A stretch of DNA of 64,000 nucleotides from Flaccisagitta enflata (lineage: Eukaryota), in the NCBI GenBank assembly GCA_965153355.1, contig OZ231126.1, positions 20,088,001 through 20,152,000 of the forward strand, in the 5' to 3' direction. Position numbers and translations under genes: made by a program. The stretch's first letter is position 1, and each line of letters opens with the position of its first letter. Under the pieces are notes generated by a model that was not told where the DNA came from, ran no database searches, and saw only the letters and a program-made list of their open reading frames with translations. This document shows, piece after piece, positions 890 through 39,566 of this stretch.

Positions 890-980
890 GTAACCCGCAC
901 GTTAATGTCTGTCAATGTTGGTGACGCAAAGTCGACTCCGACTGGCTCTCGGCAGTTTTCTATTTCCGTCATGACTCATG

Positions 981-1137
<157 letters not shown>

Positions 1138-1398
1138 GTTTTGCGTACATTTTCTTGGGGTTGGGACTGCTCTCACTCGTCCGCTCTGTTGGTCTTTGTG
1201 GTAGTTATGCCATTACACGCTTCCCACTTGTTTCACGATTTCCGAGTATTCATATTGGGGAAAGGGAGATTTTCCGCAGAGCGGAAAATTGTAGTTTCCC
1301 CAATGGATACGAGGGAAGAGTGAAACTATGATCACGTTATGACGTTTCACTTTTTCGTTGCTTAGTTACTGGGATACAAAAACATTGAGTTCAGTTAA

Positions 1399-3747: not shown

Positions 3748-4662
3748 AGACATTTGGTGTGCGGGTCAACCAGCGACTGTTCAGTCTTATTGTTACAGTA
3801 TACGGAAGTTTTTTGCATTCTGTACATTATTTGGTTATGAATTGAAACTGCCTGTCAGCTCATCACTGGCCGCAAATTTTATTTCATTTACGCGACATAA
3901 TTCTTGCACCAGAGGCGCTATCTCCACAGCTATAAATGCCTTGAAGTGGCTACACAATTTTGTTCCCGGTATCAATCAGACTAACGATCCTTTGAATGAG
4001 AAAATATTAAAGATGGTGGTTGATAGTGCCCTAAGAAACTTACCAAAACGCGCAAATTTGAAAATGCCCTTGTCTCACGATTTCATAGTCAGAGTTTTAA
4101 CCAATTCAGAAAGTAAATCCTCTCTCGTTGACATAAGAGACAGTCTCATCCTGTCATTGTCTTACACCTTGCTTTTTCGCCACGACAAAATAGCCTTTAT
4201 TTCTTGCGCCCATTTATTTCATGTTGACGGAGGTTTGAAGATTTTTATTCCATCGTCCAAGACCGATGTTTACAAAAATGGCAACACAGCGTTGCTTGCT
4301 AAGAGCCGAGTTTTGGCTTTGCTTGAGAGGTATCTTGTCTGGCGCGTCTATCTGTGGGCGACCATCATTTTCTCTTTGGACCAATTATTAGGCAGGGAGG
4401 AAGAGACTGCATTGATAACTGCAAACTTTCGTATAATTCATACCGAAAAATTTTACGGTCAACTCTCATGTCCTACAATCTCAACCCCGATCTCTATGGG
4501 TTTCATAGTTGTCACAAAGGCGGAGCCACGACTCTCGCTAAGAGTGCAACCAATTACGAGTTGCTTAGCGCGGGCAGATGGAGAAGTGCTCGCTCGTTGT
4601 CACATTATGTGAAAATATCCGATAAGAGGAAATTGCAGTTCTCCCGTACACTCGCTGGCTAA
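3662..4662 (+). pseudogene. DIRS tyrosine recombinase, frameshifted near 4340
   Basis: RDSLILSLSYTLLFR and SSKTD in ORF 3662..4612. YGFHSCHKGGAT (H-x-x-R with R changed to H) and GRWRS..HY in ORF 4354..4662. Confidence 0.9.
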
Positions 4663-5471
4663 TAATTGGTTAGGTTAGTATCGGTGGTAACTAAGGTAGT
4701 AATCAATAGGGTCAGTATAACCTACTACTTGACTTTGGTTTTATATTAATCAATTAACATTAATAACATTCATTTCAAGTTACAGGTTTTTCAATTTCAG
4801 GTTACTTATAACATCTTTCCGTTACAGATTTGCAAGTCTATTAGTACAGTGTTACTCCTCATTCTTATAATCTATTTTCTCCCCCCCCCCCTTCCTCTCC
4901 CTCCCCCCAGCTTGCCCAATTTCAGTTCAATGACCTTTCCGATCGTTCATCGATGTTTGTGGTTCATCAAAGATCCAAGTTTCCTGTTCGTCTCAAGACT
5001 CCATTCTCCATTCTCAAAAGACCTTTATTGTTCTGTAGTTAGGGGGATATACAGCTCACAGCTCACAGTTAGGCAGTCTTTTAGCAGTAAAACCGTTCTT
5101 TAGACAGTTGGATCATAGGCTGTTTTGTCATGAACATGAAATGAAATATGACATGTCCTACGCGACAACCTCTTACCCGTCATTACACGCTTCCCACTTG
5201 TCTCACGATTTCCGAGTATTCATATTGGAGAAAGGGAGATTTTCCGCAGAGCGGAAAATCAATGTTAGTAATCTTACTCCTTTCCCTAGATGGAACGATC
5301 TTGGATTTTTCAGAGGACGCAAAATCGTCAAAGTTCAGATTTCATCCCCTCCATCACAGCAAGTGGTCATTTCTGGTTTTACAGATGTTTTGAAGGTTTG
5401 AATGAAACCACGTAAGTGTAAGCGACAATGAATTGAGTTTGATAGTGGTGGATTGATGGATTCATACACAC

Positions 5472-6700
5472 GCACGTTGAATACAACGTGAAGATCATGG
5501 AAAAGGTACCCCCCCCCCCCTTGCAGCTCATGTCCCCATAGGCACACGGTATACGGTATCATTCAACAGTAGCTTGTACCGAAATGACATTAAACAATAA
5601 AATCAGAATTATACAAGTAGTTCTTATTGTGGGGCTGTCTTGGGCTTCCAATGACATCAATTTGACATCAGTTTGAACAAATTGCATCTTGCTGGCCGCG
5701 CCTTACCTTAAATTTTCCTTCAGCCTATGGGAAACCAAAAATTTCAAAGTGCTTAAATCTCTGTTTTGACTGCAGATTTGAAATCTGCAGAAAAAACTGT
5801 TAATTGAAAGTGCTTTCCTTTTTTCAATATTCCAACTAGAAGGTGCTTAAAATAAGCGTCAAAATTTGCAAAACTTACCTTTCTCTTTTATTTATATATA
5901 AAATCGCCAAACTTACCTTTTTTTATATCTTTAAGATGAATTTTGACTATGATCCCAAAGGAATATTGAAAAAAGGAAAGCACTTTCAATTAAGAGTTTT
6001 TTCTGCAGATTTCAAATCTGCAGTCAAAACAGATGTAAGCACTTTGAAATTTTCAGTTTCCCATAGGTTGAAGGAAAATTCAAGGTAAGGCGCGGCCAGC
6101 AAGATGCAAATTTTTAGTCGCGTGCTACGCGACTCTACACCCCGCTTTGTCGGTCTGTTGGTCCGTCCGTCTGTCGGTCCGTCAATCCGTCTGTCACACT
6201 TTACTTTGGGGCTTTTTTAGGTTTTTGCTGCCCAAATCTGCTCAGGTGCCTCAAATACGGACCCCCATGCCGGGCCAGCCGATGCCTTGTTCAGACTAAA
6301 ATTGATGTCATTAGAAGCCCAAGACAGCCCCACAACGAGAACTACTTGTAGAATTCGGATTTTATTGCTTTTAGTCATTTAGGTACAAGCTATTCAACAG
6401 GTTATCCCAATACAATTTACGCCACTGAGGCGAATTTTGAATTTCGCCTCCATTCAAGAGATATTCACTCCAAAAGGCAGATTTTTTGACCTTCAAGGGG
6501 GTGTCCGCCGCCAATGTTTGGGGTAGAATTTCTCAAGAACGGAGGCGAATTTAAAAAATCGCCTCGGTGGCGTAAATTGTACTGTGACAAGCTACAGAAT
6601 AATACCTCATATGATCCTGTGGAAGTTTTGTCATAAGCTGTAGGTAGGGGTGCTAACCTTTTTTTACGGTTTTTCTAATCTTCACGTTGTATTACGCGTG
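5472..6700. mobile_element. old palindromic (MITE/foldback-like) element hosting a younger foldback insertion
   Basis: Inverted blocks AATACAACGTGAAGAT (~5480 and ~6690), GGTATCATTC/GAATAATACC and TACAATTTACGCCAC/GTGGCGTAAATTGTA. Confidence 0.6.
5570..6392. mobile_element. foldback MITE with ~260-bp TIRs and 8-bp TSD
   Basis: Termini TAGCTTGTACC...GGTACAAGCTA. TSD TTCAACAG at 5562-5569 and 6393-6400. Right arm interrupted by a HINE at ~6111-6291. Confidence 0.88.
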
Positions 6701-6719: not shown

Positions 6720-7525
6720 AAACAAGGCCAGATACACGGCCAATACCAGTTGCGGACGGGTGGGCAGGGGCGGAAATGTGCGTTTTCACATTTTTTGACT
6801 CATGTTCACGGACGGACGGACCGTCCAACGGACAGACCAACGGACAAAGGCTCTCATAGAGTTGCGTGTCCGCAACTAAAAAGACAGATACATAGATAGA
6901 CAGATGAATAGAAAAGGTTGAGAGGCGGGAAATGAGAGATAAGAAGGCCGTATACACTCCTCCCAGTCGCGAACGGGTGGGCAGGAGCGGAATAACAAAT
7001 AGACACTCACATTTTGTTCTGATTACCGACCAATAAACCGACCGACCGACTGACACAGCAAGTTCTTCAGTGACAGGTCCGTGACTAAAATGTATTCGCT
7101 TCAATTGTAAGCAAATATAGATAAACACTAAGCCAGATACGCAGCTACCCGAGTCGCGTCCCGGTGGGCAGGGGTAGTAATGAGATAGCTCACTTAAATC
7201 TATGAGTAGTAACATTGACATTAAATTCAAGTGACGGGGTCACCAAATCGTTGCGGATGGGTGGGTAGGGGCATTTAACCTCCATCCAAAACCCAATTCC
7301 CACCCCCCACACACAGACATACACAAAACTATCTATAACGCTCGTTTTTCCACTTTTCGACTCTATCACCACAGACTGACGGACCGACAGATGGATGGCG
7401 TGCGGACAAATCCTCTTATAGATAGATAGATCTTATAGATAGATAGATCTTATAGATCTTATAGATAGATAGATCTTATAGATAGATCCTCTTATAAATA
7501 GAGTTGCGTGTCCGCAACTAGAAAA
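6720..7525 (-). mobile_element. cluster of HINE/DINE-1-like non-autonomous elements
   Basis: Read on -: T-run, AGTTGCG-loop-CGCAACT hairpin, (GTCC/GTCG)n, CCTGCCCACCC block, terminal GGCCGTGTATCTGGCC hairpin. Confidence 0.7.
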
Positions 7526-18923: not shown

Positions 18924-21900
18924 AGAAAGAAAGAAAAAAGAAAGAAAGAAGAAAGAAAGAAAAGAAAGAAAAAAGAAAGAAAGAAAAAAAAGAAAGAAAG
19001 ATAAAAAAACAACTTTTTTTCTGTTTTTATCTTGATTTTCTATCAAAAAAACTTTCATAAAACATATGATCTTTTTTTCAATTAGGTTCATCAGCTTAGA
19101 AAGATAAAAGCCTTTCTAGTTTATATCCACTTGAAAGGGAGTGACAGCAAGCCGGGGGGGGAGGAAGTGAAGGGAAGGGGGCTAATGGGGCCCCGCGGTG
19201 GCCCTTAAGCCTTAGGCCCCGCGGTAGCTTTATCCGGCTCAGAACCCCGGAATAGAGAGTATATCGTATGCATGTGTGATGGAAGCAACCAGTTAAAAGT
19301 GGCCAAATAAACAAATACTCCGGTGGTTAAACAGTGCGTCCAAGTCTTGCGTATATCGTCGACTGGAAAAAAGTCACAGACCTGGGATTTCTCTCAAAAA
19401 TATGCTCTTTTTTCTTAATTTGGCTGAAATCCGTCATTGTAGATTATGTACATGATTTCCTTTTTCAGGCGCAAGGTGCTGGGAGAGAAAATTCTCTGTA
19501 ACTTTATCCGGAAGATATTGCGAAAAAGGAACGCATTGCGGATTTGATAAAAATAAGTAAATGATAAATCGTCGCATTATTCTGTTTAGTCTGTATGGTT
19601 GTAAGTTTGATGGTTTTTTTTTCCTTTTGAAAAAGCAAAGCTTTTTGTACCAGGCACTCACATTTTATCATTCAGCAGGTGCACAAATCTATTTTGTAAT
19701 TATGTATTTTTTGTTCTTGTTAGATGCGTCCATCAGGAATTGATCTCTAAAAGAGGGTCTGTCCATCCGTCCGTTAGTTCATCTGTTCGCCCATCTTTCT
19801 CTCCAGATATTTCACGTGATTAGCACCAAATTCAATACACACAAAGACACAGTCCGGACGCATCGTTGCCTAGTCGGGATGATTTATGGTTTCAACTTTC
19901 AACTTTCATGTATTTAACCTTTCAGACAGTATCAGTGGTGTTGGGTTGATGAAGCAAATAACGATTGGGACTATTGTTGCTTTCCGGGATCCACAATCAG
20001 CCGTGATGGGAAAAAAGGGTAGAGATGGCATATGAAAAAAATTTGATATTTTGTCATTTTTCACTCATGCTAATGCCATTAGTTCCAAATGTTTAAAAAA
20101 AATTCCTTCGAATTTATTACTAGTATAAATATACTAAATAATTGCGTTTTTAATTAGTACACAAGTCAATGGGGGTCATAAAAGTGGCAGGATCATCTAG
20201 GATCCGCGCCGTTTGACTTTCCCACACAAACTGCTTTATTCATCTCATGTTTGCGGATTTTACCTTGATGCGCGCGCAATCGGAAATGAATCTCAGCTGA
20301 GAATCAGCCTCATTTCTAATTACTCAATTATACAAATTAGCTTATGACTAGTGTCACGCTAAGCCGACCGTGGACGGGATGAAATTCGTCAATTTCACAT
20401 GTTTGAAAATTGAACAAAACCATATGTCATCATGTAGCTCACCTATTCTTACATATGAATCCATACTTGGATTTTCTTAAGTAAGCTCATTTTTCATGCA
20501 AATTAGGCTTAAATAGATATTGTTGGCAGTTTTATTACTAGAAAATTTAGCTAAATACAATCACGAAATCAATATGACAGTGAAATTCTTATTGATAACG
20601 TTCAAGCAAACATGTGTGATCATGTTTCTGAAATTTTTTTGAATTTTTTTAGTTTTTTAAAAAAAATCTCTATAAGTAGCATTTCTGGCTGGGTGGGCTG
20701 TTGGAAGAAAAAAAAATTTCCCCATGCTCTTTTTTATGCCAGTGACGAGGAATCTTTAAAGGAAGCTTCATGCAAAATTTCAACCAGATCGGTCAATTAT
20801 TTTAGAAGTTATGCCATTTTTTCATTTTTTTATCTGGTGGGCTGGTTGGTCTGGTTGGACTGCTCAACATTCTCTAGGTCGCATAAGAATTTAGGCAAAG
20901 GAGTCTCTTGATCTAGATACCAACCATGCAAAATTTCATTGGGCTAACTCAAATAGTTCCTGAGATATGCAAATTTGAATTTTGTGAAATTTTACCAAAA
21001 TAAAACTTAAAAGCATCATGCATTTGTGTGAGAAGCGCTGTGTGGAAACAAAGAATTAACTACGAAGCTGGTCGGCAGCGTTACAATTCAATTCTTTTTT
21101 TTGTAGTGATCATCTTTGAAATTTCACTGTGACCAAACGATTTGGAGTTAAGTTGAAATTTTGGTGCAAGTACAGAATTGATTTTCTTCCCATCATGAAG
21201 ATGAATTTTTCGTCTTATGTTACTATGCCGTGGCATAGTATGAATCATAGTGTGACACAAGTGTGACAGCTACAACAAGGAGCACCTCTGAATTGTAACG
21301 CTCCAGGAAAATGCTTATTTCTTTTGAATAGAATGGAAAAATCCTTGAAAATCGGAGGAAAGGTCCTCCAACTAGTCCTTAATACAATGGAAAAGAAAAA
21401 AAAAATGCTTAATGTTTGAGTAAAGATAGGCCTACGAAAAAAACTTTCTACCTAACTCATTTTTAGAAAAAAATGAAAGAAAAATAAAGGGGAAGAGTGT
21501 CATAATTCAAATTCATTTTTTGTCATCTTACAGTTGAAATATTAAATTCAAACTTTCTACACATATCAATGGATTGATAGTGATTGCTTACAAGCTATTG
21601 GATGACCCCCATTGACATTTTTTGATTGGTTAAACTTGCGTTTTGCTTGCAGGGACAGAATCGGGACAGGCCCTAATAGACCCTTCTACCCCTGTTTTGG
21701 ACCCCATAGGGGCAGTCGGTGTGGCAAATTTTGGTTTAGTATGGCACACCAGATAGTTAGGTATGTCACCCAACCTTTGTGACCTTATGCAATTCAGCAG
21801 AAGAAGCGATGACACTTCTACAATGGCGGAGAGTCAGGGTTTCTCGCGCGCATGACGAAACTCGGAATCAGCCTTATGATCGATTTGTCATTCTATTATC

Positions 21901-23623
21901 ATTCCAAAGTTCTACTTTGTTAGATATTAAGTTTCATCATCCAGGGACCTTTCATGAAGTTATGAAAGGTGTTTTTAGTGATAATGGTAACACAAATGGA
22001 AATTCCTACACATTTTTCTTTCATTATGACAGAAACAACAATAGAAAAACTGACCCTTTGGTTTTTCTCAATTCTCCTAGCGGAAGCGAGTTGCTCTAGA
22101 GCTGTCCAAGAGTTGTCTGAGAGTTGTCTTTGAGTTATCTCAGAGTTGTCCTAGTGCTGTCCTAGTATTGTCCTAGACGTGCCCTAGACTTGTCCTTATT
22201 GTCCTAGAGTTGTTCTGAAGTTGCCTAAGAGTTGTCTAAGATGTCAACCATTTATTTTTTAAAGTGTCTTGGAATTGTTCTAAAGTTGTCTGAGAGTTGT
22301 CCTATGTTGTCCCAGATTTGTCCTAAAGATATCCTAGGCTTATCCTGGACTTGTCCCAATTGTCCTTCAGTTGTTTTAGGGTTGTTTGGTCGTTTCTTAA
22401 ATTGTCCTGGAGTTGCTTTGAAGGGGTCCTAGAATTACTATTGTTTTGAGATTGAAAGTTGTCCTAGAGTTTCTAAATTGTCCTAGTTGTTCAAATGTTG
22501 TCCTACAAACATCCTTGTTGTCGTAGAGTTGTCCTGGTGTCATTCCAGTATTGTCCTAATGTTGTCTTGAAGTCCTAGATTTGTTCTCAGGGTTGTCCTG
22601 GATTTGTCCTTGAGTTGTCGTCAGGTTGACTGGAGATATCTTGTGTTAGTTTACAACAACAAATTTGAAATGACTTTATTTAAAAGGCAGCTATTATTGT
22701 AGTTGCAGACACAAAACAATATGAGAGGCTATGTCCAACATTCTTTTGATCCATCTGCCTGTTAGTCTGTCCATAACACATGAGCAAACAAGTGACGCTG
22801 GGTCACAATATTTTTGTGGCTAGGTGGGCAGGGGCACCCAACCCCAATTCTCACCAAACCCACCTACAACATTCAAACATACACAAAAGTATCTAAACAC
22901 TCATTCTCACATTTTTCAACTTAATGACCAATGGACCGACAGATGGACAGATGGACAAAGCCTCTCATAAAGTTGCATATCTGCAACTAAAAAGGGGAAA
23001 ACGAAGTATTTGAGATGCTTTTTGGGTATCGTTGTTAGTTATGGAGGGAGCATGAACTGTGAATGTAGATTCAATGCCCCTGCCCACCCTTCCGCAACAA
23101 TTATTGTGACTACCCATCACTTGTTACTGGTTGCATATTGCAGACTCTCCTTACGGGCAACAACCTTTTCATGTCTTGTTACATTATGATGCCTGAAATA
23201 AAAGAAGTTTATAATTGAGGTTAATGAGCAGACATCCCTGGCAACATGCTTCATTAACACTTGCTTCAAAATGTTTTACATTTTTGGTAATTCATGAAGG
23301 AATAATTGATAAGGTTTATGTGAGAGAACTTGTCAATAACAAAATTTGGAGGTGGGTGGGGAGGTGGTTTAGAGTATGCTTAGGTAGACTTGGACTGTGT
23401 AGGTGGGTTGAGTGGGATAAAGAGGCGTTAGGTGATTTTTTCCCATCAGGGTGGGATTTGATGGACTGTGTAGGTGGGTTGAGTGGGATAAAGAGGCGTT
23501 AGGTGGTTTTTTCCCATCAGGGTGGGATTTGATGGACTGTGGGATCTTCATGCAGAATGAGACGGGAAATAATGAGTGGATATTACTATCATTCCTGCGG
23601 TGCTTGTAAACTTGAGAAAAAAA
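11772..23623 (+). CDS. Cys-rich extracellular protein, 5' part (signal-like N-terminus + module 1); exon 5 split by a transposon
   Basis: Phase-compatible exons 11772-11835, 11872-11926, 19335-19372, 19469-19556 and 19926-19991 + 23547-23623 give MTNLQRIVSLWDWMCVFCLLQISAK...SCGAFCASKSCVYRRLEKSARCWERKFSVTLSGRYCEKGTHCGFDKNKQYQWCWVDEANNDWDYCCFPGSSCRMRRE... The Cys pattern matches the exon at 53667. The donor at 19373 (GTCACA) is weak. Confidence 0.72.
12297..12400 (+). repeat. degenerate interstitial (TTAGGG)n tract
   Basis: Repeated TTAGGG and variant hexamers, lying within a HINE copy. Confidence 0.85.
12608..18795. mobile_element. Chapaev/CMC-like non-autonomous DNA transposon with ~450-bp TIRs
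   Basis: Termini CACCCCCCTCTGGATAGCC/GGCTATCCAGAGGGGGGTG. 4-bp TSD CATT at 12604-12607 and 18796-18799. Superfamily inferred from CAC ends plus 4-bp TSD only. Confidence 0.8.
16381..16596. mobile_element. small MITE
   Basis: Imperfect TIR GGCGTGTTTCTAGT/ACTAGAAACGCC with internal GAGTGA/GAGCGA repeats. Confidence 0.5.
22095..22640. repeat. degenerate ~11-bp tandem array (AGTTGTCCTAG)
   Basis: Recurrent GTTGTCCTAG variants. Confidence 0.75.
23400..23541. repeat. 71-bp tandem duplication of the transposon right end
   Basis: 23400-23470 and 23471-23541 differ at one position. Confidence 0.95.
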
Positions 23624-24607
23624 GTAAGAATGCAGGAGCGAAATCATCTTGCGAAGTCAGATACAGTAATTGAACTTGTCATCCAAGGATCGCACATGGT
23701 CAGCGATATAGTAATTGAAGAAAGACAACAAATCTTTTAATTTTGGGTAGCTGCCCCAAAGGGTTATGTCATGTTGAACACAGGGGCGAATTCCTCTATC
23801 TCAGCATGTATATGCGTACGTGCATTCCCCCCCCCCCCGGTCTTCTGAGGCCTGAAATCAGCCCTCTCAAGTCTGAAATCAGCCCTCTCAGGCTAGAAAT
23901 CAGCCCTCTCTAGTAATCAGCCTTCTCAAGCCTTAAATGTAAAACATTTCTTTGAGGCCTAAATTCATCCCTCTCAGACATGAGATCACCCCTCAGGCCT
24001 GATCACCATTCCCAAACCTCAAATAGCCCTCTCAAGCTAAAATTCTTTTATTTGCTTGGTTAAGGCGAGCTCCAGGCGTTCCCGGGGTCGAAAACGGCTG
24101 GAGGTCGCCTTGGCCAAGCGATTCCCTTTCAGATCAGAATTGGAAAAAATTGAATCGTGCTTCCCTTGGCATTGCAAAACACTGCAAAGCAAACTCAAAC
24201 AAAAAACAAGACGAAAGAAAAGCAGTGAAAGTAAACTCATTTGAAAAACTCGATCATAAGCAGAAGTGACGACGACGCGGTAAAGAGACAGTGACGCCAT
24301 CGACGCGGGGACGCCATCGACGCGGTGACGCCATCGACGCGGTGACGCCAACGACGCGGTGACGCCAACGACGCGGTGACGCCGACGACGCGGCGACGCC
24401 AACAACGCGGTGAAGCCAACGACGCGGTGGCGCCAACGACGCGGTGACGCCAACGACGCGACGACGCCAACGACGCGGTAACGCCAACAACGCGGTAACG
24501 CCAACAACGCAGTAACGCCAACGACGCGGTGCCGCTGACAAAGCAGCGACGCTGACAACGCGGTATCGCCGGTGACGCAGTGACGCTGAAAACAAGAGCC
24601 AACGGAG

Positions 24608-25585
24608 ATGCCAAATCGAGACAAGAAGCCACTATGTGGCCATTGCAAGGCGGACACAAAAAAACAACAGGCGACGGCGATACCATGCACTGTCTGTACC
24701 ACATGGTACCACATCAGTTGCTTGACGGGGATGTCAGACAAATTCGTCGACAACTGCGACAAAAGCAACAGACTGAAGGGAGATTCAAATTTCTTCTGTC
24801 CCAACTGTCGCAACTTCATTCCAAACATGAACGGAAGCATCCACGATCTCCTTGAGAAATTCATCGCGTTGGAAGCGCGGGTCAACGCCACGGAGGCGCG
24901 TGCTAATGCGGCAGAGGCGCGAGCTAACGCCGCAGAGCTCGAGCTGCAACAACTGAGAGCGGAGGTTGAAAGGATGACGAACGGAACGGATCAGGTGAAG
25001 GAGAAAATCGTGGTCATGGAGAAAGAGATAGAAAACGGGACGGAACAAGCAAAGAAGGAAGTGAAGGAGGAGATGACGGTGGAAATGCGGGCCAGAGAGG
25101 AAAAGGCTGCCAACATCGTCGTCTATGGAGCAAAAGAGTCTGGCAAGGAAAGCGCCGCCGAACGAGTCGACGATGACGTGCAGTTTGTCAAGGAATTGGC
25201 GGAAAAACTCGAAATCGAGATCGTCGGAGAGGTCGAGGCAAAATTCCGAGCCGGAAAGAAACCGGAAGGAGCGGAAGCGGGAAGACCAAGACCGCTCATC
25301 GTGAAAATCAGCGACGACCAAACATGAGAGAAAATTATACAGAAAGCCAGATTTCTTGGACGAAGTGACGACAACTGGAAAAACGTGTATGTGGGACTCG
25401 ACCTGACAAAAAAGGATAGAGAGGAAGCGAGGAGCAAAGAGGAAAAGATGAAGGAGGAAGCAAAGAAAAAAACGGAGGATGAATTAAAAAACGGATCGCG
25501 GAAGGGAGGAAGATACGTGGTAGCGGGAATGAGAGGAAGAGAACGATGGCTGGCATGGAGGGAGGATCGACAAAGTCAGAGATAA
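24608..25585 (+). pseudogene. LINE ORF1 with PHD finger and coiled coil; one in-frame stop at 25325
   Basis: CGHC...CTVCTTWYHISC...CPNC, then ANIVVYG and RPRPLIVKI. Continues in frame as VYVGLDLT. Confidence 0.85.
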
Positions 25586-27507
25586 AAATCGCATTTGCGA
25601 ACGTGCAGAGTGTAGGAAATAAGATGAATGAAATGCGCGCGATGGTGGCTATGATGAAACCAGAAATCATGGCAATAACGGAGACTTGGACACATGAAGG
25701 TATCGGAAACGAGGTGTTAAACATCGATGGCTATGAAATTGTGGCGCGGCATGATCGCAATGACACAGACAGAGGAAGAGGAGGAGGCATAGTAATATAT
25801 GCGAGGAACACTGTGAATATATCAGTATTAGAAAAAAACACTGATTTTAACCAGTGCGCATCGGTGGAAATGAAGCTCGGATGCGAGACGATGAAACTTC
25901 ATGTAATATACAGATCCCCCAACTCGAAAAAAACGAACGACGAAGATCTGTGCAGCTGGGTGAAAGGAATGAAAGGGGCAAATGTGTTGATCGGAGACTT
26001 GAACTTTCCAGACATCGATTGGCAGAATGGAAGAGCGGGGCCGAAAGGACGTGATTTTTATGATGCAACGGCGGAAGTATTTATGGATCAACACGTGAAA
26101 TTCCCAACACATGACAGCGGGAATGTATTGGATCTTGTCTTATGTAATCGGGAAGGCAAAATCCAGGAAGTCAAAGCAGAAGGAAGGATCGGCAAAAGCG
26201 ATCACGACATCATAACGTTCGAAATATGCGTCGGGGGAAGAAAAGAAATGAAAAAACGAGTAACATACAACTACCGGAAAGCAGATTTCGCAATGATGCG
26301 AAAATCACTATCGGAGACAAACTGGACACGTGAATGGGAAGGACGAGATGTCAACGGAATGTGGGACGACCTAAAAAAACGGGTAAAAGAGTTGATGACG
26401 GCAAACATACCGATGAAAACTATGAAGGAAAGGATGCAGCCCCCGTGGATGGACAAAGAAGTCCAGAAGGCGATTGAGAAGAAAAGGCAGGCATGGAAGC
26501 TATGGAAAGAAACGGGATCGAGAAAAAACAAAGAAGAATACAAGAAGAAAGAAACGGAAGTAAAGAAAAAGATACGAAATAAGAAGAATGCGCTGGAAAG
26601 AAGAGTAGCAAAATGCCGGAAAGACAATGCTAAAATGTACTACGCCTTCCTAAACAGGTCTCGGAAAACAAAAAGCAAAATCGGTCCTCTGACAAATGAA
26701 GACAAAGAAAAAATCACGGACCCGCAAGAACAAGCAGAGATGCTAAATAAGTATTTGGCGTCAGTCTTCACTGTAAGTGGGCAAGATCTACCAGAAGCAG
26801 AACAATATAACGGGGAAGCAAATTTAACTGACGTGGATATACGAGAAGAAATGGTAAAACAAACAATCGACGATTTGAAAGAACATTCAGCCTGTGGGCC
26901 GGATGGAATCACGACTCGCGTGATTAAAGAACTGCGAGATGAGTTGTCAAAACCGTTGACAATACTCTTCCGACATTCGATGGAGACAGGGAAAATCCCG
27001 GACGACTGGCGGGAAGCAAATGTGACGCCAATATATAAGTTGAAGGGAAAAAAATCCGAGCCCGGAAACTACCGACCAGTGTCTCTAACGAATGTTGTTT
27101 GCAAAATGATGGAAAGACTGGTGAAAGAAGAAGTGATGAAGCATGTCGAAACGAATAGGCTGCTATGCGACGCACAACATGGATTTAGAGCGAAAAGGTC
27201 TCCGCAGACAAACTTGATAGAGTTTATGAATGAGACAACAAAGTGGCTAGATGAAGGAGCGTCATTCGACATCTTATACCTAGATTTCTCCAAAGCCTTC
27301 GACAAGGTCTGTCATGAAAGATTGATGCTTAAATTGGAAACTATGGGTATCGCCGGAAAAGTGAAAGAATGGCTACGAGACTGGCTGAGAGGGAGGAAGC
27401 AGAGGGTGAGAGTCGAAGACGAACTGTCGGATTGGATAGAGGTGTTAAGTAGCGTCGTCCAAGGGTCGGTCCTTGGTGGCACCCTATTCGACATCTTCAT
27501 TGATGAC
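25546..27507 (+). pseudogene. LINE ORF2, AP endonuclease + RT N-terminal part, interrupted
   Basis: ITETW, GDLNFP, SDHDII, GNYRPVSLT, QHGF, YLDFSKAFDKV, QGSVLG. Confidence 0.95.
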
Positions 27508-29094
27508 CAACCCATTGCATACCGACTTTTGTAGTAACGCGATATGCGGTATTCACCATGGCAACGTAACGCCATCTTGGCGTCTATGTGGCGTTATCTA
27601 AGGCGTTATCAATTGTTGTTATTACTGTCATTTTTTGTCTATCTTTTTTATTTATCATGGAAATATTATGATCATTTGAAAAAAAAATTGAAGAAAAAAA
27701 TGTTTATATTCTATATTTACTATTAATAATGATTTTTTCTAATTTTTTTTTCATTTTTCATTTTTCATCATTTTTCATCTTTCATTTTTCATTTTTCATC
27801 TTTCATTTTTTTATCTTTCATTTTTCATCTTTCATATTTCATCTTTCATCTTTCATCCTTCATCCTTCATCCTTTATCCTCCATCTTTCATTTTTCGCTT
27901 TTCATTTTTTCACTTTTCACTTTTCACTTTTTATGTTTTACTATTTTTTTTTTACCATTCTTTTTTGCATTTTTTTCTTCATGTATTATATTACAATTTC
28001 TACTTTTAATCTTTGATTAAATTTTTCTTTTTTTTTCTCTCTTTTTACAATTGATATTTGATATTTGATAATTAAATTTTGATTTTATATCGTTTGATTT
28101 TCTATCCTTTTTCAGCCTTCAGCACTAATTTATTCTTATAATCAAGAATGTTTTGATAGAAAATAACTTATATATTGAAATGATCAGTTATTTTCACACA
28201 TGAGATTAAATAACGTCGACGCGGTATTAACACTGAAACGAGTCTCTCCATTTTGATCTCAGTCTCACCCTGTATCTCTAGTTCTCTGCCATAAATATAA
28301 ACACAGACAGACAGACATACAGACAGGCAGACAGACAGACAGACAGACAGATGGACAGACAGCGTAAAAAATGGCTAAATAGGCACGGGCAGTCAAGGAG
28401 ATGAAAGTACATTTCGCTCAGAAAATATTTTGCGCCAGTGATTCTTTCTCGATTTTTTTTTTTCTTTTTTTTTTTTTCTTTTTTTGTTTGGGAGGCATGA
28501 TTTCGTTTGAGTGTTATTTGGATTGAATAGCAGATTTTTTTTTTTTTTTTTTTTTCTAGAGTTCATGTTCCGATTTGAATTCGTTTTTTAAATTGGTTTG
28601 ATATGAAAGAAAGAAGAGAATGGAACATGGTTAATTCATGTAGTAGTATCAATAATTTTCTTTTTGATCAATGAATCTGTTCTATATACTACTGACAATG
28701 AGTGTCCCCAGAGTCGACGGGGTCCGTCAGGCTAATGTGCCGTATTTATTGAAATAGGATCTTTGTTAGTCTCCACCTTATGGTAATTCTAAAATCACGA
28801 GAATCGCCTAGGAATAATCTGCCGGATTTTTCTTTCTTAATTTCATATTTGTAAAAATTGATCAAATCCACTTTAGATTGCGTGGTCGTTTGTAAATCTG
28901 CCAGCAATAATCCGGCTCGTAACCGGCTGTCCCAATCATGTAACGCGATAAGAAGAGATACGTGTTACAACATAAACAAGGATATGGGTACTAGAAGCAA
29001 AATGCTGAATCTGCTGCTAAAATCTAAGGAGAGTAAAATGTTCTTCCGGATTGCCAGCAATAATCCGGTGCCGAGTTAAAACAAACGAGATCAT

Positions 29095-31082: not shown

Positions 31083-34000
31083 CTACCCAAACAGGTCCCA
31101 CCCTCTATACCCCACCCCATCCAAAATACCACCCCACTCAACCTCTCCTCCTTCCACCATCCTCCCCAACACGCCACCTATCAACACAGACGCCGCAAAA
31201 CACCCAGCCTTCTGTTGCCACATAGCCAGAATCCATTCCTCTTCCAACTGCTTCCTCAGCCTTCCCACAAACAGACTCCACACCCTTTCCACTGCCACTT
31301 CCACACTGCCGAGCACCAACCCCCGCATCGTGTGCACCGCCGACCGGAGCTCAAATCCCAACCTCCTCCAAAGTTGGTCCGCCGCTCTCTCCCCCAACGG
31401 CCCAAATGCCATCTCCCCCTCCACCACCTGCATGTCGACGACGCGGATGAGAGTCGGCTCCAACTTCCGCCACAGACGCCGAACCACCTCACACTCAATC
31501 ACCACATGCCACCTCTCCCTCGCCACTTCTCCGCACAACCTGCACTCCCCGTTACCATCCCTAACCCATGTGGCCATGTGTGGGGTCCAAAAATTCAACC
31601 CCACCTGTTTCCAAATATCGGAGCGAACACGCAAAGAACACGGCGTCGAATGTAGACGCCGCCATATATCGGGCCAATGCCCATCCAGAGACGCGCCGAG
31701 CGCCCGTTCCCACTTCTCCTCATAATGTCGAGAGCCACTGCGTGCCCTTCTACGGAAGGCCACGTAGAGCTCTCTGTAGGAGACCCTTGTGTGGTCCTTT
31801 CCCTCTTCGGATATATCGAAGAGGTAGTGAGGCTCACTCAAGGGCATTTCGGGAGCAATACCACGAAGGCGGGCCACCTCGTCCCACTTGCCACGCCCAC
31901 CCAAACCCAGACCGGACAACATCCACAACGAACGAACAGACGTCACATCCCGAAGAACAAGCCAAGGGACAGAGCGCAGGGGGTGCCCATCAGCACCCAC
32001 TATCTGCACATTATGGAACAACCGACTACTTGCACGCGTACCCCTCTCCGTTACCACCTTTGGTCCTAACTCCCCCCAGGCCTTTAGTGCTTCTCTATAG
32101 AAAGCACTGCCGACCTTTTCCATCACCCTCGCCTCTGCGCCTAACACCTCCAGGCCTCTCCATCCCCATCTCTGGTCGCCTATCATTTCCGCCGCCAAAA
32201 CTCGGGGGAAAGACCCCCGCGGCATTGCCAAAAGGCGACATAACCACGCGACCCTCTGTGCCTTGACCTTATCCTTAACATCAACAAGCTGCGCACCACC
32301 ATACTTGTACGCAGCCTTTAATCGGTCACGGCACACCTCTTGTCTTCCTCTAAACACCCACTCCGCAACCGCCTTCTCCACATTCCCACAGCCACCACCC
32401 AGCATATTGCAAGGTGGGGACCATATCTCAGTCCTATACCACAAGCGCTAATATAGCAACACATTTGCAACCATCACCTTGCCCAGCTCAGATAATGGGC
32501 GCGACTTCCACGCCTTGAGCTTAGCGTGAATGGATGCAAATTGTGCTGTGAAATTGTCACCGGCGCAGGTGGTTTCTCCTATCCACACACCCAGCACCCT
32601 CACCCTGTTGTTTCTCCAAGCAAAACCAAACGGCCTGTCTGTCCTTGCCCTCCAGGGACCTATCCACAAGCCCTCCGTTTTAACTACATTCAACCTCCCC
32701 CCCGAGGCGGCCTCATAGAGGCGCACCTCGCTCATGAACTGCCGCATCGACGCATCAGACGTTAAAAACGCCTGAGTGTCGTCGGCGTACTGGCCGATTT
32801 TCTTCTCTACCCCAGAAACCCTTACCCCTCTTATCCGGGGATTCCCCCTTATCTGACTGGCCAGTACTTCCGCCACCATCACATATATGTGACTGGACGG
32901 AGGGTCACCCTGACGGGTGCCCCTATCTAGCCTTATCTCATCGCTGAAAAACCCATTTATCAAAACCCTGGAGTGCACCCCATTATAGAACACCCTTATC
33001 CACCTCAAAAACCCCGGCCCGTACCCCATCCCACCCATTACCTTAAGCATAAAGCCGTGGTCTACTCGGTCAAAACACTTCTCCTGGTCAAGACAGAGTA
33101 TAGCAGCCGGTGTTTCAGTGTTATCACAATAATCTACAACATCTTGAAGGATATGCAGATTAGTTGTGATACGACGACCTGGAACACACGTCTGATCCTC
33201 ATGAATGAGCTCCGGCATGACCTTCGACATTCTCCGTGCGCTCACCCTACTGATGATCTTGTAGTCGGCGCCAACTAAGGTGACAGGTCGGTAGTTGCCA
33301 ACCTCTAGTTTGTCACCCTTTTTATATAGCAACCGAATCACACCACCACGCATACTGGCAGGCAAGCGACCACTCTCGTATGCGCACTCAGCTACACCCT
33401 TGAAGTCGCTGGAAAGGTCGGCCCAAAAGAACTTCCAGAATTCGGCAGGGAAGCCGTCCTCTCCCGGCGCCTTACCGTTCTGGAGTGTCCTAAGTGCCTC
33501 CCCCAGCTCCTCCACAGTCATCTCTCCCTCACACATTTCGCGGGACTCGCGTGACAGAGTCTTTGTCAGTCGGTCCAGTAACTGGTCCTGCACGTCCGGG
33601 TCTGTCCCTTCGCTTGTAAACAGGTCCGTATAAAATCTGTACGCCACGTCCAACACCCCTTCTGACCCATATTGCACCATCCCCTGCCTGTCTCTCAAGG
33701 CGTAAATCAGGTTCCTGCCTAACCTGCTTTTTTCCATCTTACTGATATACGCCACTCCTGGTTCCCTTTCTGCAAAATTGGGCAACCTTGCCCTTACCCT
33801 GTGCCCCTCCGCCTTCCGTTCCTCCTCCTCCTTCAACAGTCCCACCACTCTTTCCAACTCACTCCTCTCTCTGTCACCCGCCCAACCATACACCACATCC
33901 CATTCCAACCTCTTCCTCTCTTCCTCCAACCTTCGCACATACTCCCTCCTCGCTCCTGCTTTCTCCCTACTGTATTCCACAGTCACAAGACGCCACACCT

Positions 34001-34886
34001 CTTTCGCCCAGTCCCACCACTCTCCATCGTTACCAAAACCCCCCTTCCCTTCTCTGACCTCTCTTATTTTACCCCTTAGAAGTTCAGTGTAAGACCTGTC
34101 TCTCAGCAGGCTCACATTGAACTTCCAATAGCCTACCCCTTGTCTGACCTGGTCCTCTATCTCAACCTCAAAGACCTTGTGCCCGCTACTGACCCCATCT
34201 GCCCAAAAGTAGCGGCACCCTTTCACCCTTCCAGCCGTCACTCCGTCCAAGTACATCCTGTCAATCCTACTCCTGTGTAGCCCCTGCTCGTATGAAAAAA
34301 CAACGTCCGTGTTTCCGTCCACTCTAAAAGCGTCACATAGACCAGTCCCCTCAAGCACACTGGCCATATGACGGCCGCAAGCAGCCTCCCACGTGCTTAC
34401 AGCGCCCCCACACCTATCCAAGCCATCCACCACAAAATTCCAGTCACCCATCATTACCACCGGCATACTGTCATCCACGGCCACCTCCAGGCTCCGAATG
34501 AGCCCCGGAGTACCAGCCGCCCCTGGGTAGCCGTAGACTACCACAAGGTCCATTTCCCACAAAAACACCACACTCCTCACTCTTACCACCATCAGCCTGC
34601 CAGCACTCAACACCCTTTCATTCACGACCTCAAACTCACGCGAAATGACCAAGCAGACACCCGCATACGTATCCCCCTCCGCGTGTCCTGAGTGCAAGAC
34701 ATGGTGAGATAACCGCATGTCTTGCATTGGTTGGCACAACTGCTCGATATCCGAGCAGTGTGTCTCTTGTAGGGCAACGGCCCCAATATCAGACCCCCAC
34801 TGTATATAAGAGAGGACCCAAGAACCCTTGTATCGGGCTCTTGGTCCCCCTCCCAATCCATTGGGGTTATACGTCAGGAAACGCAT
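31083..34886 (-). pseudogene. Tx1-like ORF2 (APE-RT-CCHC) with one in-frame stop at 32448-32450
   Basis: LQETH, GDWN, SRIDR, GKAPGEDGFPAEFW, GNYRPVTL, LDQEKCFDRVDH, RQGDPPS, QYADD, CRLC-x8-H-x4-C. The two listed ORFs are in the same frame. Confidence 0.93.
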
Positions 34887-36126
34887 AATCGGAGGAAAAA
34901 AGAAACACCAGCCGCGCCAACACTACATACCAGGGCCAAAAAAGGCAAAAAACGCGCTCACCACCATTGCTTGCCAAGGCCAACAATTACTCCCATACTA
35001 CCCTTATAGGCAGATGAGAGCACTTATCAACCCCCCCAAGCAACCATGGTAAGCACAAGATAACCAACCAACCTAACCATTGCTACCAAGCCATGACCAG
35101 AGGCGACTCTAGCCTACCCTAGGGCCGGCCAGAATCGACTATAGACACGGCAAAGCAACAATTTTTAGGAAGGGGGGCTAAAAATACACAAAAAAGGCAG
35201 AAAAAAACAAAAACGGAGCCAAAACCGAAAAAGGCCAAAACCACCAACTGTTCCCCCCCCTACTGCCATCCAATGCCAATGGACGATTTCGGCCCACTCT
35301 AAGATAGGCCAAGATCGACCAAGGTCAAAGTAGGGCAGCAATGAGTGGGAATAGAAGGCAGCACAAAAAGGCAGAAAGGCAAAAAAGGGCGCCCCAACAG
35401 TGGCGAGAGAGAAAACAAAGGCCCCCCACACTAACCAAGCATGGCAGGACCCCCTCCCGCTATTGTCCGAGCGGGAAACCCGCGCCAAACCTAAACCAAA
35501 CCAACCGGATTATTAGTGGCGATTCTGATGGCCCAAAACAGCTGTTTGGGTGGCCAGCCAATCAGGTCTCTCAGTCCACATCTACCTAACCAGCGGCCAA
35601 CCAATCAGAGTAAAGTGACCATCCATCTCGCCAGTAATAATCCGCCCGGAGGTTATATAAAGCAAAACGGAACCAGAAAAGCAAACGCGCGAGGCGTAGC
35701 AGCCAAACCAGGCGAGGAAGAAAACGACGAAAAAAGACGAAAAAGGAAAAGGAGAAAAAAAACAGAAAAAGACAAAACGAAAAAGAAGCCGGAACAAAGA
35801 CGAGAAAGGCAACCAAGCAAGCAACCACGGGGAAGAAAACCCAACTCAATTCAAAGGTGAATTGAATCAAGCCCTCTTCCCAAGCAACAACGACGACGAC
35901 AAAAGGCCAAGATGGGGGAAGTATCGACCAAGCAAGCAAGCGACCAAGCGAGCAACCAAGTGACCAAGCTGACCAACCAAGCCAGCCGCCAATCAGGCGA
36001 CCTGGCTCTCAAGTGAGCGGGCGATCAACCTAGCAAGCGAAACGACCAAGCAAGCAGGCCTTCCCCCTACCCATCAACCAAGCAACCAACCGGGCGACCA
36101 AGCGAACGACAACAGGAGGGGGGGGC

Positions 36127-38703
36127 CTAAAGTCCTCCCTTTCCTCCCTTTTGCCCACCTCTGGACTGTGCCCTGCTCTGGCGCTGCTGCTGTTGGCCTG
36201 GCTGTTTTAGCAAAGCAACTAATTCACGCTGGCTAATGCTCGGCACCTCTTTAGCGTCCCTACTGACACTCAAATTCCTCTTCGCGTTACCATTCATCTC
36301 ACCATCGGAGTCAAGAGTTTCATCGCCTCTCGCTCTCTTCAAAGAGGCACTGCGGTGCCTCGCGTCCTTGTTTTGGAGTCGAGGGATGGCCATTTTTGGA
36401 GCCGTCGATCCGGAGTAGGCCGACATGGCTGCGCTGCCAAGGGCCTGCAGTCTCGCCGAGAGATGCTGGAAGGAAGGTTGGGGGGCTGCTGCTGCTGCGC
36501 CCAGCAACTCGGAGGGTGCTGCTGCTGCTGCAGCCGCCGCCGCGACTGGTGCTGGTGTCACGATGACCGCGACATGGCCGGATGAGAGCGACGGTGAGGC
36601 GCCAAGAGCGCCGTCCGCGATGCTGTGGTTGATGCTGATGCTGTTGTTGTTGCTGTTGAGGCTGGAGACGCACGAAATCATCTCCGGTGTCAGGGCGAAT
36701 GAGCCACTTTCGACGGAAGATGGGGGATCGCCGCCTCCTTCCTTTCCGTGTGGGGGGGTCGAAGTCGACGTCGCCACAAAGCTCTGGGAGAGGTTGAGGA
36801 GAGCCGCCTCTGCCATGGCCACACTTTTTGCCACTGCCGCCTCCTCCACTTCAGCTCTAATCGCTGCCGCCAATTCCTCCTCCTCCTTCTCAGAAGCCGT
36901 CAGCTTCTCCAAGGTGGCTGCTGCTCTTGCTGCCTCGTCCTCCTCCTCCTCCACCTGGCTGCCCCAACTGACGTTGCCTTGGAGTGTGTCGTCGCCTTCT
37001 TCAACTGGGACCACCACCTCCGTTGCTTCCGCCACTCTCTTCTTCTTCTTCTTCCTCCTCCTCTGTTCCTTTGGAGCCTGTGAGGATTCAACTATATCCT
37101 CCTCCTCCTCCTCCTCCACGTCCCCTCCTCCTTCTGCAAGACTGGAGAGGGCATCCTGCGTCGATGGCGCTGCTGATGCTGCTGTTGATGAACACGGGGC
37201 TGCCGCTAATGGAGACGATGATTGGCCGGCCACTGGTGGTTGCTGCACTGCTGCTGCTGTCGAAGTCGTTGGTGATGGCGCCGGTGCAAGTAGCGGTGGC
37301 GCTGTTGCTGCTGCAGATGATGATGATGAAGTTGGAGGGAGTGTTGCTGCTGCTGTTGACGAAGTTAATGTAGCAGATGTGGAAGATGCCGAGGCCGTTA
37401 CCACTGCTGCATATGATGGCAACGTCGCCATCGGCGTCGTCGCCACATCTCCCGATGGCGAAGCATAAGGCGGGCATGCAAACTCCTCATGCAATCGGGT
37501 GCATCGCATGCATCCGACCTTGTGATGGCGGTCCGAGCACCCGTCGTACGGATTATCGGCCACCTGGAAAGAAACTATCGCGTCCTTCCCCATCTTATCA
37601 TTAACATCAGTTCTCACCTTCCCCATCACTTTTCGGGTTCCACTGGCGGAGTAGTGGACCCCATCCCTGTCGAGATCATCAAGAGCGAAGACGAGCGTTT
37701 CGAGGTTGATGAAGGTGCAGCCTATCTTTGATGCCGCTCGCTTCGCCTCCGCACGGGTGAAGCGACGGTAGTCGTACTCCGGGCCGTGGCAGATTTCGCC
37801 GACAAATGGGTCCACAATGAAGATGGAGCGATCGCCGTTGTTAAGGGGTGACAGCACCTTACAGAGCTCCTCGAATTGGTGCTCCACCATCTCCTTTGCG
37901 TCGTCAAAATCACGGCCGTTGTTATTACGGCCCACGGACACGATTACAATTTCGCCATGAGGAAGGATGGATGAGTCATTGTTTATGTGGTTCGCCACAT
38001 GCCCAATTTTGGCGCCGGGGATGGCGTCGACACGCATCGAAGCGTCATCCTTCAGCATTCTCATGATGCTATCGCCGAAGAAGAGGATCCTGGGCGGGGT
38101 TGCTGTTGCCGATGCCACCGCCCCATTCCTCCGTCTGCGACTGCCGCCTCCTCCGTTGCTACGCTGCTGCCAACGTGGGCACTGCCCATCCTTGTGCGTG
38201 TCGTCGCACTGCCTGCAATCGAAGGGTTGCTGCCTATACACAATCTTATAGGTGTACTCCACCCCTTCATCCGACGTCCACTTGTTGAAGCGAGGAAGGT
38301 GGCGACTTCCAATCTCCACCAATGCCTCCCTTACACCATTGTAGATGCCAGTCGCCTCCTCATGCTCCTTGCTGACCGTTGGTTGCACGATGACGCATCC
38401 ATAATCTCGCATAAAGGCGTCGAAGTATTCGTCCCCTACCATCACCATTTCTCCTTCATACGTTTGAAAAAACTTCACCCATGTAGCAGGCTTGTTCGAC
38501 TTTCTCCTCCTCATCGGGATCGTCGTCTTCGTCCTTCCTTTCTCCACCTTCAGCTCAAACTTCTCCAACACCGCCGCCGCTTCCTTCGTCCTCGCTGAGA
38601 CGTTAAAAACGCCGCGTTTCCTGAAGGCGTCGGTGATAACGACGTTGTTGAGGATCGTCGATCCATGCTGATCTTTGATCTGCTCCCTGAACGCCTTCGC
38701 CAC
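36127..38703 (-). CDS. LINE ORF1: zinc knuckle, SGNH/GDSL esterase, second knuckle, low-complexity tail
   Basis: CRQCDDTHKDGQC; FFGDSIMR...IPGAKI...VGRNN...DGVHYS; CMRCTRLHEEFAC. Start codon unclear. Confidence 0.82.
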   Translation of the reverse strand: MAKAFREQIKDQHGSTILNNVVITDAFRKRGVFNVSARTKEAAAVLEKFELKVEKGRTKTTIPMRRRKSNKPATWVKFFQTYEGEMVMVGDEYFDAFMRDYGCVIVQPTVSKEHEEATGIYNGVREALVEIGSRHLPRFNKWTSDEGVEYTYKIVYRQQPFDCRQCDDTHKDGQCPRWQQRSNGGGGSRRRRNGAVASATATPPRILFFGDSIMRMLKDDASMRVDAIPGAKIGHVANHINNDSSILPHGEIVIVSVGRNNNGRDFDDAKEMVEHQFEELCKVLSPLNNGDRSIFIVDPFVGEICHGPEYDYRRFTRAEAKRAASKIGCTFINLETLVFALDDLDRDGVHYSASGTRKVMGKVRTDVNDKMGKDAIVSFQVADNPYDGCSDRHHKVGCMRCTRLHEEFACPPYASPSGDVATTPMATLPSYAAVVTASASSTSATLTSSTAAATLPPTSSSSSAAATAPPLLAPAPSPTTSTAAAVQQPPVAGQSSSPLAAAPCSSTAASAAPSTQDALSSLAEGGGDVEEEEEEDIVESSQAPKEQRRRKKKKKRVAEATEVVVPVEEGDDTLQGNVSWGSQVEEEEDEAARAAATLEKLTASEKEEEELAAAIRAEVEEAAVAKSVAMAEAALLNLSQSFVATSTSTPPHGKEGGGDPPSSVESGSFALTPEMISCVSSLNSNNNSISINHSIADGALGASPSLSSGHVAVIVTPAPVAAAAAAAAAPSELLGAAAAAPQPSFQHLSARLQALGSAAMSAYSGSTAPKMAIPRLQNKDARHRSASLKRARGDETLDSDGEMNGNAKRNLSVSRDAKEVPSISQRELVALLKQPGQQQQRQSRAQSRGGQKGGKGGL

Positions 38704-39566
38704 CCACGCCTAACCACTGACGATCCAGGTCTTACAAACTAGATACGATCTACTGCACGATCAAAGTGATTCTCGTCTCCAATAGATACGAGAAGAGATA
38801 GCTATAAATTGATTATTAGATATAACTAGATATCGATTTCCGGTACGATTCATTATTTTTTTCATAGTTACATATTATCAATAAATGTTTACCATTTCCT
38901 AAATAAGGTGTTGTGTGTGTGTGTGTTTGTGTGTGTGCGCTTTTGTGCGTGTGTGTGTGTGTGTTCCTTTTAGAAGTGCTCTTAGGTCGCTTATCATAGT
39001 AAATCCATATTGAACATACAGTAGAGTCGCTTTTCTTGTATTTGTTATCAATTTGGAGAAATCTATTTTTGAAATCGTTTTTATACCAATGGAAAACGAT
39101 CTTAGATAAAAATTGGAAAAATTTCGAATTTGAGACAGGATACTTTACATTTGTAACTGTTTAAAAGAAAACCAGTCGGTATGAAACTGTTTTTTAGTCG
39201 CGTGCTACGCAACTTTACACCCCGCTTTGTTGGTCCGTGGGTCCGTCGGTTCGTCCGTCCGTCACACTTTACTTTTTCGGCGTTTCTGGGGTTTTTGACT
39301 ATACCGCTCCTGCCCAAATGCTCCACTGACCTCAAATATGGCGGCACGCGACTGGGGTACCCGTGTATCCGGCCTTGTTTTAATTTCAGACATGAATAAT
39401 TCGTCCATGGCATGAATGAATATCGAGTGAAAGACATTGCAAACGTAAGAAAGCATGAGCATGAGCCAGTCATTCAACCTCTTTTGTCTGCTCTTTTACT
39501 GTTACCAATTTTGGGTGATTGCCCACCCAAATCTGACTGAAAGAATCGAACCTCTCTCTCTGTCTC

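Follow-up and report, generated by a model that had tools for sequence, protein, structure and literature searches.

A gene-less insertion with unequal bipartite ends in Flaccisagitta enflata, probably a non-autonomous element of the Transib superfamily

We examined a 64,000-nt window of Flaccisagitta enflata DNA (OZ231126.1; all coordinates are window-relative), in which a segment of about 3.5 kb, from CACAATC at 19992 to GACTGTG at 23541, carries a two-part signal at each end, with a longer spacer on the right than on the left. A sequence-only reading had taken this segment for a Transib/RAG-like transposon. The locus raises the questions of whether the segment is a transposon insertion at all, to which superfamily it belongs, and whether the unequal spacing characterizes a family or only this copy. 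We found that the segment is probably a non-autonomous element of the broadly defined (Transib/RAG-like) Transib superfamily, whose bipartite ends are unequal at the level of the family. In addition, its right end is duplicated in tandem, a feature that the sequence-only reading had overlooked.

Boundaries and terminal signals of the element

The boundaries were read directly from the sequence. The left junction reads ...TTTCCG GGATC / CACAATC AGCCGTGATGGG AAAAAAGG..., in which AGCCGTGATGGG is the 12-nt spacer, and the right junction reads ...GGTTTTTT CCCATCAGGGTGGGATTTGATG GACTGTG / GGATC TTC... on the forward strand. As the reverse complement from 23541, the right end is CACAGTC, followed by a 22-nt spacer, CATCAAATCCCACCCTGATGGG, and by AAAAAACC. 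The 5-bp duplication GGATC that had been claimed was found at 19987-19991 and 23542-23546; the range proposed earlier, 19987-23546, is the correct span including both duplications, whereas the element itself occupies 19992-23541. A 6-bp duplication, GGGATC, is possible with a right end 1 base shorter, but the CAC/GTG symmetry of the tips would then be broken. The insertion of a terminal-inverted-repeat DNA transposon with a 5-bp target-site duplication and CAC/GTG tips is supported by these observations.

The layout of the two ends given in the sequence-only reading was accurate. The shared block CCSTGATGGGAAAAAA occurs at 20001-20016 (+) and 23507-23522 (-), with an internal third match at 23436-23451 (-), as compared with a chance expectation of 0.23 matches at up to 2 mismatches, and it lies 10 bp farther from the heptamer at the right end than at the left. 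The A6 run stands 12 nt from the heptamer on the left and 22 nt on the right. When registered on the nonamer of the V(D)J recombination signal sequence (RSS), the spacers are 11 and 21, in agreement with the earlier count. The two ends share a perfectly conserved 13-nt core, TGATGGGAAAAAA, while the sequence flanking it is unrelated, also beyond the A-run. Replacing the single 10-bp gap by gaps of 4 and 6 bp gives an alternative alignment, in which all 8 leading bases of the left end match.

A scan of the window for CAC...GTG pairs 200-10,000 bp apart, with identical outer 5-mers and an inverted shared word no more than 45 nt from both tips, returned a single match for words of at least 10 nt, namely the 19992-23541 element, with a word of 13 nt. 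Among 100 simulated second-order Markov windows, none (0/100) contained the layout with a word of at least 13 nt, and the rate for words of 10 nt or more was 0.14 matches per window. Further left-end copies in the window were sought with a 27-mer at up to 3 mismatches, which matched only itself, and self-BLAST and short-word BLAST for further copies of the right-end unit or the arms gave chance words of 10-17 nt only. Two CACAGTCCA words at 40063 and 40088 were judged to be unrelated to the element. A hairpin function of the end palindromes (CAATCA/TGATGG; CCATCA/TGATGG) was considered and dropped, as their single-stranded folding was no better than that of shuffled sequences (z = 0.20, -0.91 and -0.76).

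No stop-to-stop open reading frame (ORF) inside the element exceeds 118 amino acids (aa), the three internal ORFs tested (3/3) matched no Pfam family, and an Rfam search gave no match. Having no coding capacity, the element must be mobilised in trans, as the sequence-only reading had proposed. A RAG1L/RAG2L gene pair is absent between the ends, although a non-autonomous derivative would also be without one. The gene-less interior contains short interspersed nuclear element (SINE)-like, minisatellite and other high-copy repeats, suggesting that it has collected later insertions.

The right-end unit and other copies of the element

The right end lies within a 71-bp unit present in 2.1 tandem copies in the window, the inner and outer units differing by 1 mismatch in 71. 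Each unit holds a complete right-end signal, consisting of the heptamer, the 22-bp spacer and the block. As a probe for copies elsewhere, the stop-to-stop ORF that covers the right arm (23215-23502, +) was compared with a large protein collection, in the expectation that spurious ORFs would have been annotated over such copies. Of 15 candidates, 13 proteins were returned, all from metagenome contigs of 0.5-1.4 kb, and E was <1e-5 for 12 of these. Every one of the 13 contains the 71-bp unit, translated in two reading frames, and P0087 also has a match to the part of the arm interior that precedes the units. An ungapped scan for stretches running from the T-run to the heptamer, by which gapped stretches are not countable, showed that the length is kept in 24/24 stretches in 13/13 proteins (15 FFPSGWDLMDC-like and 9 FFPIRVGFDGLC-like); the sole gapped candidate found by eye was the tail of P0094 (SGWVDCV), which is two residues shorter. 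This conservation suggests that the long spacing is the norm of the family and not a private insertion in the window copy. For the long end, the 22-type spacing of 13 other contigs speaks against a private 10-bp indel, the case that the sequence-only reading had held out against itself.

Full end stretches numbered up to 2 per protein, and up to 3 in P0091. In the frame that can be followed past the heptamer (15 stretches), 11 enter a next unit, 3 exit the array directly after the heptamer, and in 1 the ORF ends (P0098). The 11 continuations indicate that tandem arrays are a feature of the family. The exit after the heptamer codon is clean in P0096, follows a changed heptamer in P0095, and leads into a degenerate scrap in P0094. 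The T-run differs in length between units (FF, FFF or FFFF in translation). A protein atlas search with P0090 gave no usable match. Scans of viral contigs and of metagenome contigs for the bipartite end pattern each returned 0 matches, as did a scan of metagenome contigs for a 21-mer from the middle of the unit. In P0099, about 70 residues resembling real coding sequence (PF25562) run straight into the 71-bp unit, which places a unit array at or inside a gene in that contig.

Other copies were further assessed from the contigs of four sequencing runs (X1-X4), aligned at 80% likeness, X1 and X2 being from one organism and the others from marine metagenomes; summed contig depth is no copy number, and the values that follow are rough. 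The single-copy flank at 19500-19650 had a depth of ~175 in X1 and ~88 in X2. In comparison, the left arm bin 19953-20254 had a depth of ~2,000-5,800, roughly 10-60x single-copy in the four runs, the minisatellite core ~560-6,300, and the right arm interior at 23124-23274 ~550-950. Very roughly, these three depths fit a family of 5-60 copies. High-copy repeats start near 20348. Contigs also join 22233 to 23127, thereby skipping 22234-23126, and 22304 to 23338; both joints indicate that other copies are without the nested SINE pair. The unit bin 23426-23576 reached a depth of 1.1-2.4 million in X1 and X2, and the 71-bp unit seems to be among the more abundant repeats of the genome.

The contigs also bear on the short left end. 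In X1, a contig end is 51 letters away from the difference at 20042 and 76 from that at 20067, and in X4 it is likewise 51 letters away from the difference at 20042. By these distances, a contig end coincides with the CAC, at 19991/19992, in two of the four runs (X1 and X4); it was not seen in X2 or X3. Such an end may arise where the assembly graph branches because the flanks of copies diverge. If this holds, the left CAC is a boundary of the family, and the short left spacing is common to other copies. Of the 12/22 spacing that had been proposed for the family, the 22-type part is borne out by other copies, while the 12-type part appears, as far as the contig ends indicate, to be common to a small repeat family.

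Identity of the element and alternative explanations

A 5-bp target-site duplication is described by Kapitonov and Jurka (2005, PMC1131882) as separating Transib from all other eukaryotic DNA transposon superfamilies, and this duplication together with the CAC/GTG tips points to Transib in the broad sense. In the same account, the Transib consensus end is CACAATG, a 23-bp spacer and AAAAAAATC, and 12/23-like 5'/3' ends are given for Transib5, Transib2_AG and TransibN1_AG to TransibN3_AG, a subject taken up again by Yakovenko et al. (2021). Compared by description, these families share with the present element the 5-bp duplication, the CAC heptamer, an A-rich nonamer-like element, and one short and one long spacer, and the TransibN families also share the lack of a transposase gene. 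The present element differs in that its heptamers end in C and not G, its distal element is of 16 nt and not 9, its spacers are 12/22 (or 11/21), its right end is tandem, and its host is a marine animal and not an insect.

Unequal ends are also reported outside these families. PflRAGL-A of Ptychodera flava is described with a heptamer and an AT-rich nonamer-like element, a 10-bp asymmetry in end length and 5-bp duplications (Martin et al. 2023, 10.1101/2023.08.20.553239, PMC10629977), all shared by the present element; it differs in that a conserved A-rich TR2 adjoins both heptamers and that it encodes RAG1L and RAG2L. AanRAGL of Aureococcus anophagefferens is described with a 4/13 end spacing, and the Subgroup I Transibs as all asymmetric-ended (Tao et al. 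2022, PMC9435367). The shared features in this case are two conserved end elements, unequal spacers (a 9-bp difference in AanRAGL) and 5-bp duplications; the sequences of the conserved elements are others, and AanRAGL is an autonomous element with experimentally shown activity. Non-autonomous RAG-like elements with duplications are reported as well (Martin et al. 2020). The interest that the sequence-only reading had attached to 12/23-like asymmetric ends was therefore overstated, as such ends are published for Transib (2005), PflRAGL-A and AanRAGL.

The A-rich TR2, which would adjoin the heptamer at both ends over 9-10 bp, is absent from the present element; the 10 nt adjoining the two heptamers, AGCCGTGATG and CATCAAATCC, are identical at 1/10 positions. 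Since a TR2 is a feature of RAG-like family B and PflRAGL-A, its absence makes the ends resemble Transib proper more than RAG-like elements. As compared with the V(D)J RSS, the element shares a CAC heptamer (the right end is 6/7 identical to CACAGTG), spacers about one helical turn apart, and a right nonamer, GAAAAAACC, that is 7/9 identical to ACAAAAACC. In contrast, the left heptamer is 5/7 and the left nonamer 5/9 identical, there are no flanking gene segments, and the CCSTGATGG part of the spacer is conserved between the ends, whereas RSS spacers are not. Tandem arrays derived from terminal inverted repeats (TIRs) are described for Tetris TIR-220 of Drosophila virilis and for the Xmix miniature inverted-repeat transposable element (MITE) and Xstir of Xenopus (PMC9659126). 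They share with the 71-bp unit a head-to-tail monomer containing the terminal repeat and a high copy number; Tetris, Xmix and Xstir belong to other superfamilies, and a limited literature search brought up no description of such arrays in Transib. Both unequal ends and TIR-derived arrays being known already, the element is a further, fairly ordinary example.

In the mechanism that we propose, the terminal CAC heptamer would be the site cut by a transposase encoded elsewhere in the genome, which would excise and reinsert the element, and a 5-bp staggered cut in the target would give rise to the GGATC duplication. The distance of the distal block, CCSTGATGGG followed by the A-run, from the heptamer is 2 nt at the left end and 12 nt at the right, a difference of about one helical turn. 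The right end lies within the 71-bp unit, carried by the family as a short tandem array with a whole right-end signal in each unit, and the SINE-like and other small repeats were probably gained after insertion. By analogy with the superfamily, the enzyme family, its nick-hairpin chemistry and a nonamer-binding-like domain that would contact the distal block may be presumed. A stricter proposal is that a dimeric nonamer-binding-type domain of a Transib/RAG-like transposase reads the 16-nt block and that only a 12-type end paired with a 22-type end is used efficiently; we regard such a one-turn/two-turn pairing rule as quite unlikely. If it were true, the tandem 22-type units would form a bank of alternative partner signals, similar to recombination-signal arrays, and the origin of the 12/23 rule could be tested in a naturally occurring invertebrate family that abounds in marine plankton DNA.

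Several observations weigh against assigning the segment to a Transib family with unequal ends. No transposase of any kind linked to the ends was found, and none of the 10 window ORFs scanned was Transib- or RAG1-core-like. Position 7 of the heptamer is C at both ends, as compared with G in the published Transib and RSS heptamers. The preference of Transib for GC-rich target sites is not seen in the rebuilt 35-bp site (GC 0.43 vs 0.427 for the window), although one site is too little to judge by. One complete element was seen, hence one duplication, and no empty site, which would read ...TTTCCGGGATCTTCATG..., was seen; a bridge from 19991 to 23542 is absent among the contig joints listed. The majority contigs differ from the window copy at 29 listed positions in 20042-20279, which suggests that this copy is old or belongs to a minor subfamily. 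An ORF probe of the left end gave 3 matches, all to unrelated tandem-repeat proteins, and recovered no other left end. Finally, the unit depth is 100-1,000x that of the left arm, indicating that most unit arrays are not in elements with the 19992-20347 left arm; they could be parts of elements with different left arms or of 22/22 elements, or plain satellite arrays.

This last point also favours the view that there was no insertion, and that the edge of a 71-bp satellite array happens to lie beside GGATC. The 5-bp repeat would then be a coincidence, and the left end a degenerate piece of the satellite in inverted orientation. Tandem units are found in the window as well as in the majority of the 13 other contigs, the unit depth exceeds 1,000,000 in X1 and X2, far above the left arm, and the origin of satellites from transposon ends is well documented (PMC9659126). 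However, the combined layout appeared in none of the simulated windows, three array exits in other contigs fall directly after the heptamer, the contigs of the family appear to stop at the left CAC, and the left arm, minisatellite core and right arm interior have similar moderate depths, and we hold this explanation to be improbable. A different doubt is whether the spacing of a real Transib-type element has any function. The left end may have arisen from the right-end type by deletions of 4 and 6 bp, with no pairing rule, the asymmetry being tolerated if the transposase needs only the terminal ~15 bp. The better fit of the ends with two gaps than with one, the match of all 8 leading left-end bases, and the variation in A-run length between units would agree with this. 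So would the expectation stated in Martin et al. (2020) that invertebrate RAG-like enzymes use the terminal 15-17 bp and are relatively insensitive to asymmetry, and the account in Carmona et al. (2016) of Hztransib ends with little or no nonamer similarity. Nevertheless, the identity of the core TGATGGGAAAAAA between unrelated flanks suggests that the distal block is under selection, the ends are offset by a net length of exactly 10 bp, and the short left end seems, from the contig ends, to be fixed in a multi-copy family. A functionless spacing is, in our view, unlikely but deserves more weight than the satellite explanation.

The tips could also belong to another superfamily with CAC tips (EnSpm/CACTA, Chapaev or Mirage), or to an undescribed group that makes 5-bp duplications. 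CACTA-like elements typically have CAC tips and subterminal repeated binding motifs, and no transposase is tied to the present family. On the other hand, the flanks are not compatible with duplications of 2, 3 or 4 bp, the lengths expected of EnSpm/CACTA, Chapaev and Mirage, or of 8 bp (3 bp would be ATC vs GGA), and those shorter than 5 bp would leave the tips asymmetric. An assignment to hAT was rejected, as the 8-bp flanks, CCGGGATC and GGATCTTC, differ, and the C at the third tip base does not fit the usual hAT tip. These misfits make another superfamily a poor candidate, with little probability. The 5-bp duplication is, moreover, the one reported as unique to Transib (PMC1131882). Taken together, these results suggest that a non-autonomous Transib-superfamily element with family-level unequal ends is the probable identity of the segment.

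Features of the window and significance

The features of the element are listed in Table 1. The SINE-like repeat nested in it, of ~210 bp, begins with AACAAGTGACGC, has an A-rich tail at its end and a very high contig depth, and occurs in five copies in the window (22787-22993, 22989-23126 (-), 47940-48160, 59166-59380 and 7228-7420). Just to the right of the element, a 21-bp and 17-bp tandem repeat (CTGAAATCAGCCCTCTCAGT) occupies 23852-23927; it was present in many contigs, with a variable copy number.

Table 1. Features of the 19992-23541 element and its flanks (window coordinates)
Feature	Positions	Strand	Basis or remark
Target-site duplication, left copy, GGATC	19987-19991		Read directly; identical to 23542-23546
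Left terminal heptamer CACAATC	19992-19998	+	Read directly; contig end at 19991/19992 suggested by distances in contigs
Left arm, specific to a low-to-moderate-copy family	19992-20347	+	Contig depth
Left distal block CCGTGATGGGAAAAAA	20001-20016	+	2 nt from heptamer; heptamer to A-run 12 nt
Very high-copy repeat mosaic, probably nested small elements	20348-21915		Depth bins 55,000 to 1,050,000, many loose ends; no Pfam-matching ORF
11-bp minisatellite (GAGTTGTCCTA and variants)	22088-22630	+	Repeat detection
Two inverted copies of the SINE-like repeat (~210 bp), nested in the element	22787-23126		Three more window copies
Right arm interior	23127-23399	+	Degenerate unit and incomplete TGGACTGTG (23391-23399) at its end; matched by P0087 from another contig
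Inner 71-bp unit	23400-23470	-	Heptamer 23464-23470, 22-nt spacer, block 23436-23451
Outer 71-bp unit, the actual right end	23471-23541	-	Heptamer GACTGTG 23535-23541, spacer 23513-23534, T-run 23507-23512, block 23507-23522
Target-site duplication, right copy, GGATC	23542-23546		Read directly

Elsewhere in the window, a DIRS-like retroelement lies at 1399-4612 (+), with a 782-aa ORF whose Pfam matches are to reverse transcriptase, RNase H-like and, weakly, Dam-methylase-like families, followed downstream by a 331-aa ORF without a Pfam match. The relatives of its reverse transcriptase include metagenome proteins of up to 72% identity, a brittle star protein of 40% and an oyster protein of 31%. 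Long interspersed nuclear element (LINE)-type ORFs with endonuclease and reverse transcriptase domains are present at 25483-27534 (+) and 32448-34922 (-). An 860-aa ORF without a Pfam match, at 36127-38709 (-), is located upstream of the second of these and may be the first ORF of that LINE. One of the few candidates for a host gene in the window is an exon-like ORF with kelch repeats at 58337-58642 (-), for which a search restricted to longer proteins returned bacterial kelch-kinase proteins only, with 26-39% identity.

Unequal spacing of end signals is central to the debate on whether the 12/23 rule that governs antibody-gene assembly came from Transib or from RAG-like transposons. A natural family with a clean 10-bp offset would be one more data point in that debate, in which a single gene-less copy without a known partner enzyme alters nothing; if the transposase of the organism is found, the ends would provide an extra set of substrates for biochemical tests. 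Less usual is the occurrence of the long-spacer end as a tandem unit of high copy number, which is relevant mainly to the annotation of repeats in this genome and to the origin of satellites from transposon ends.

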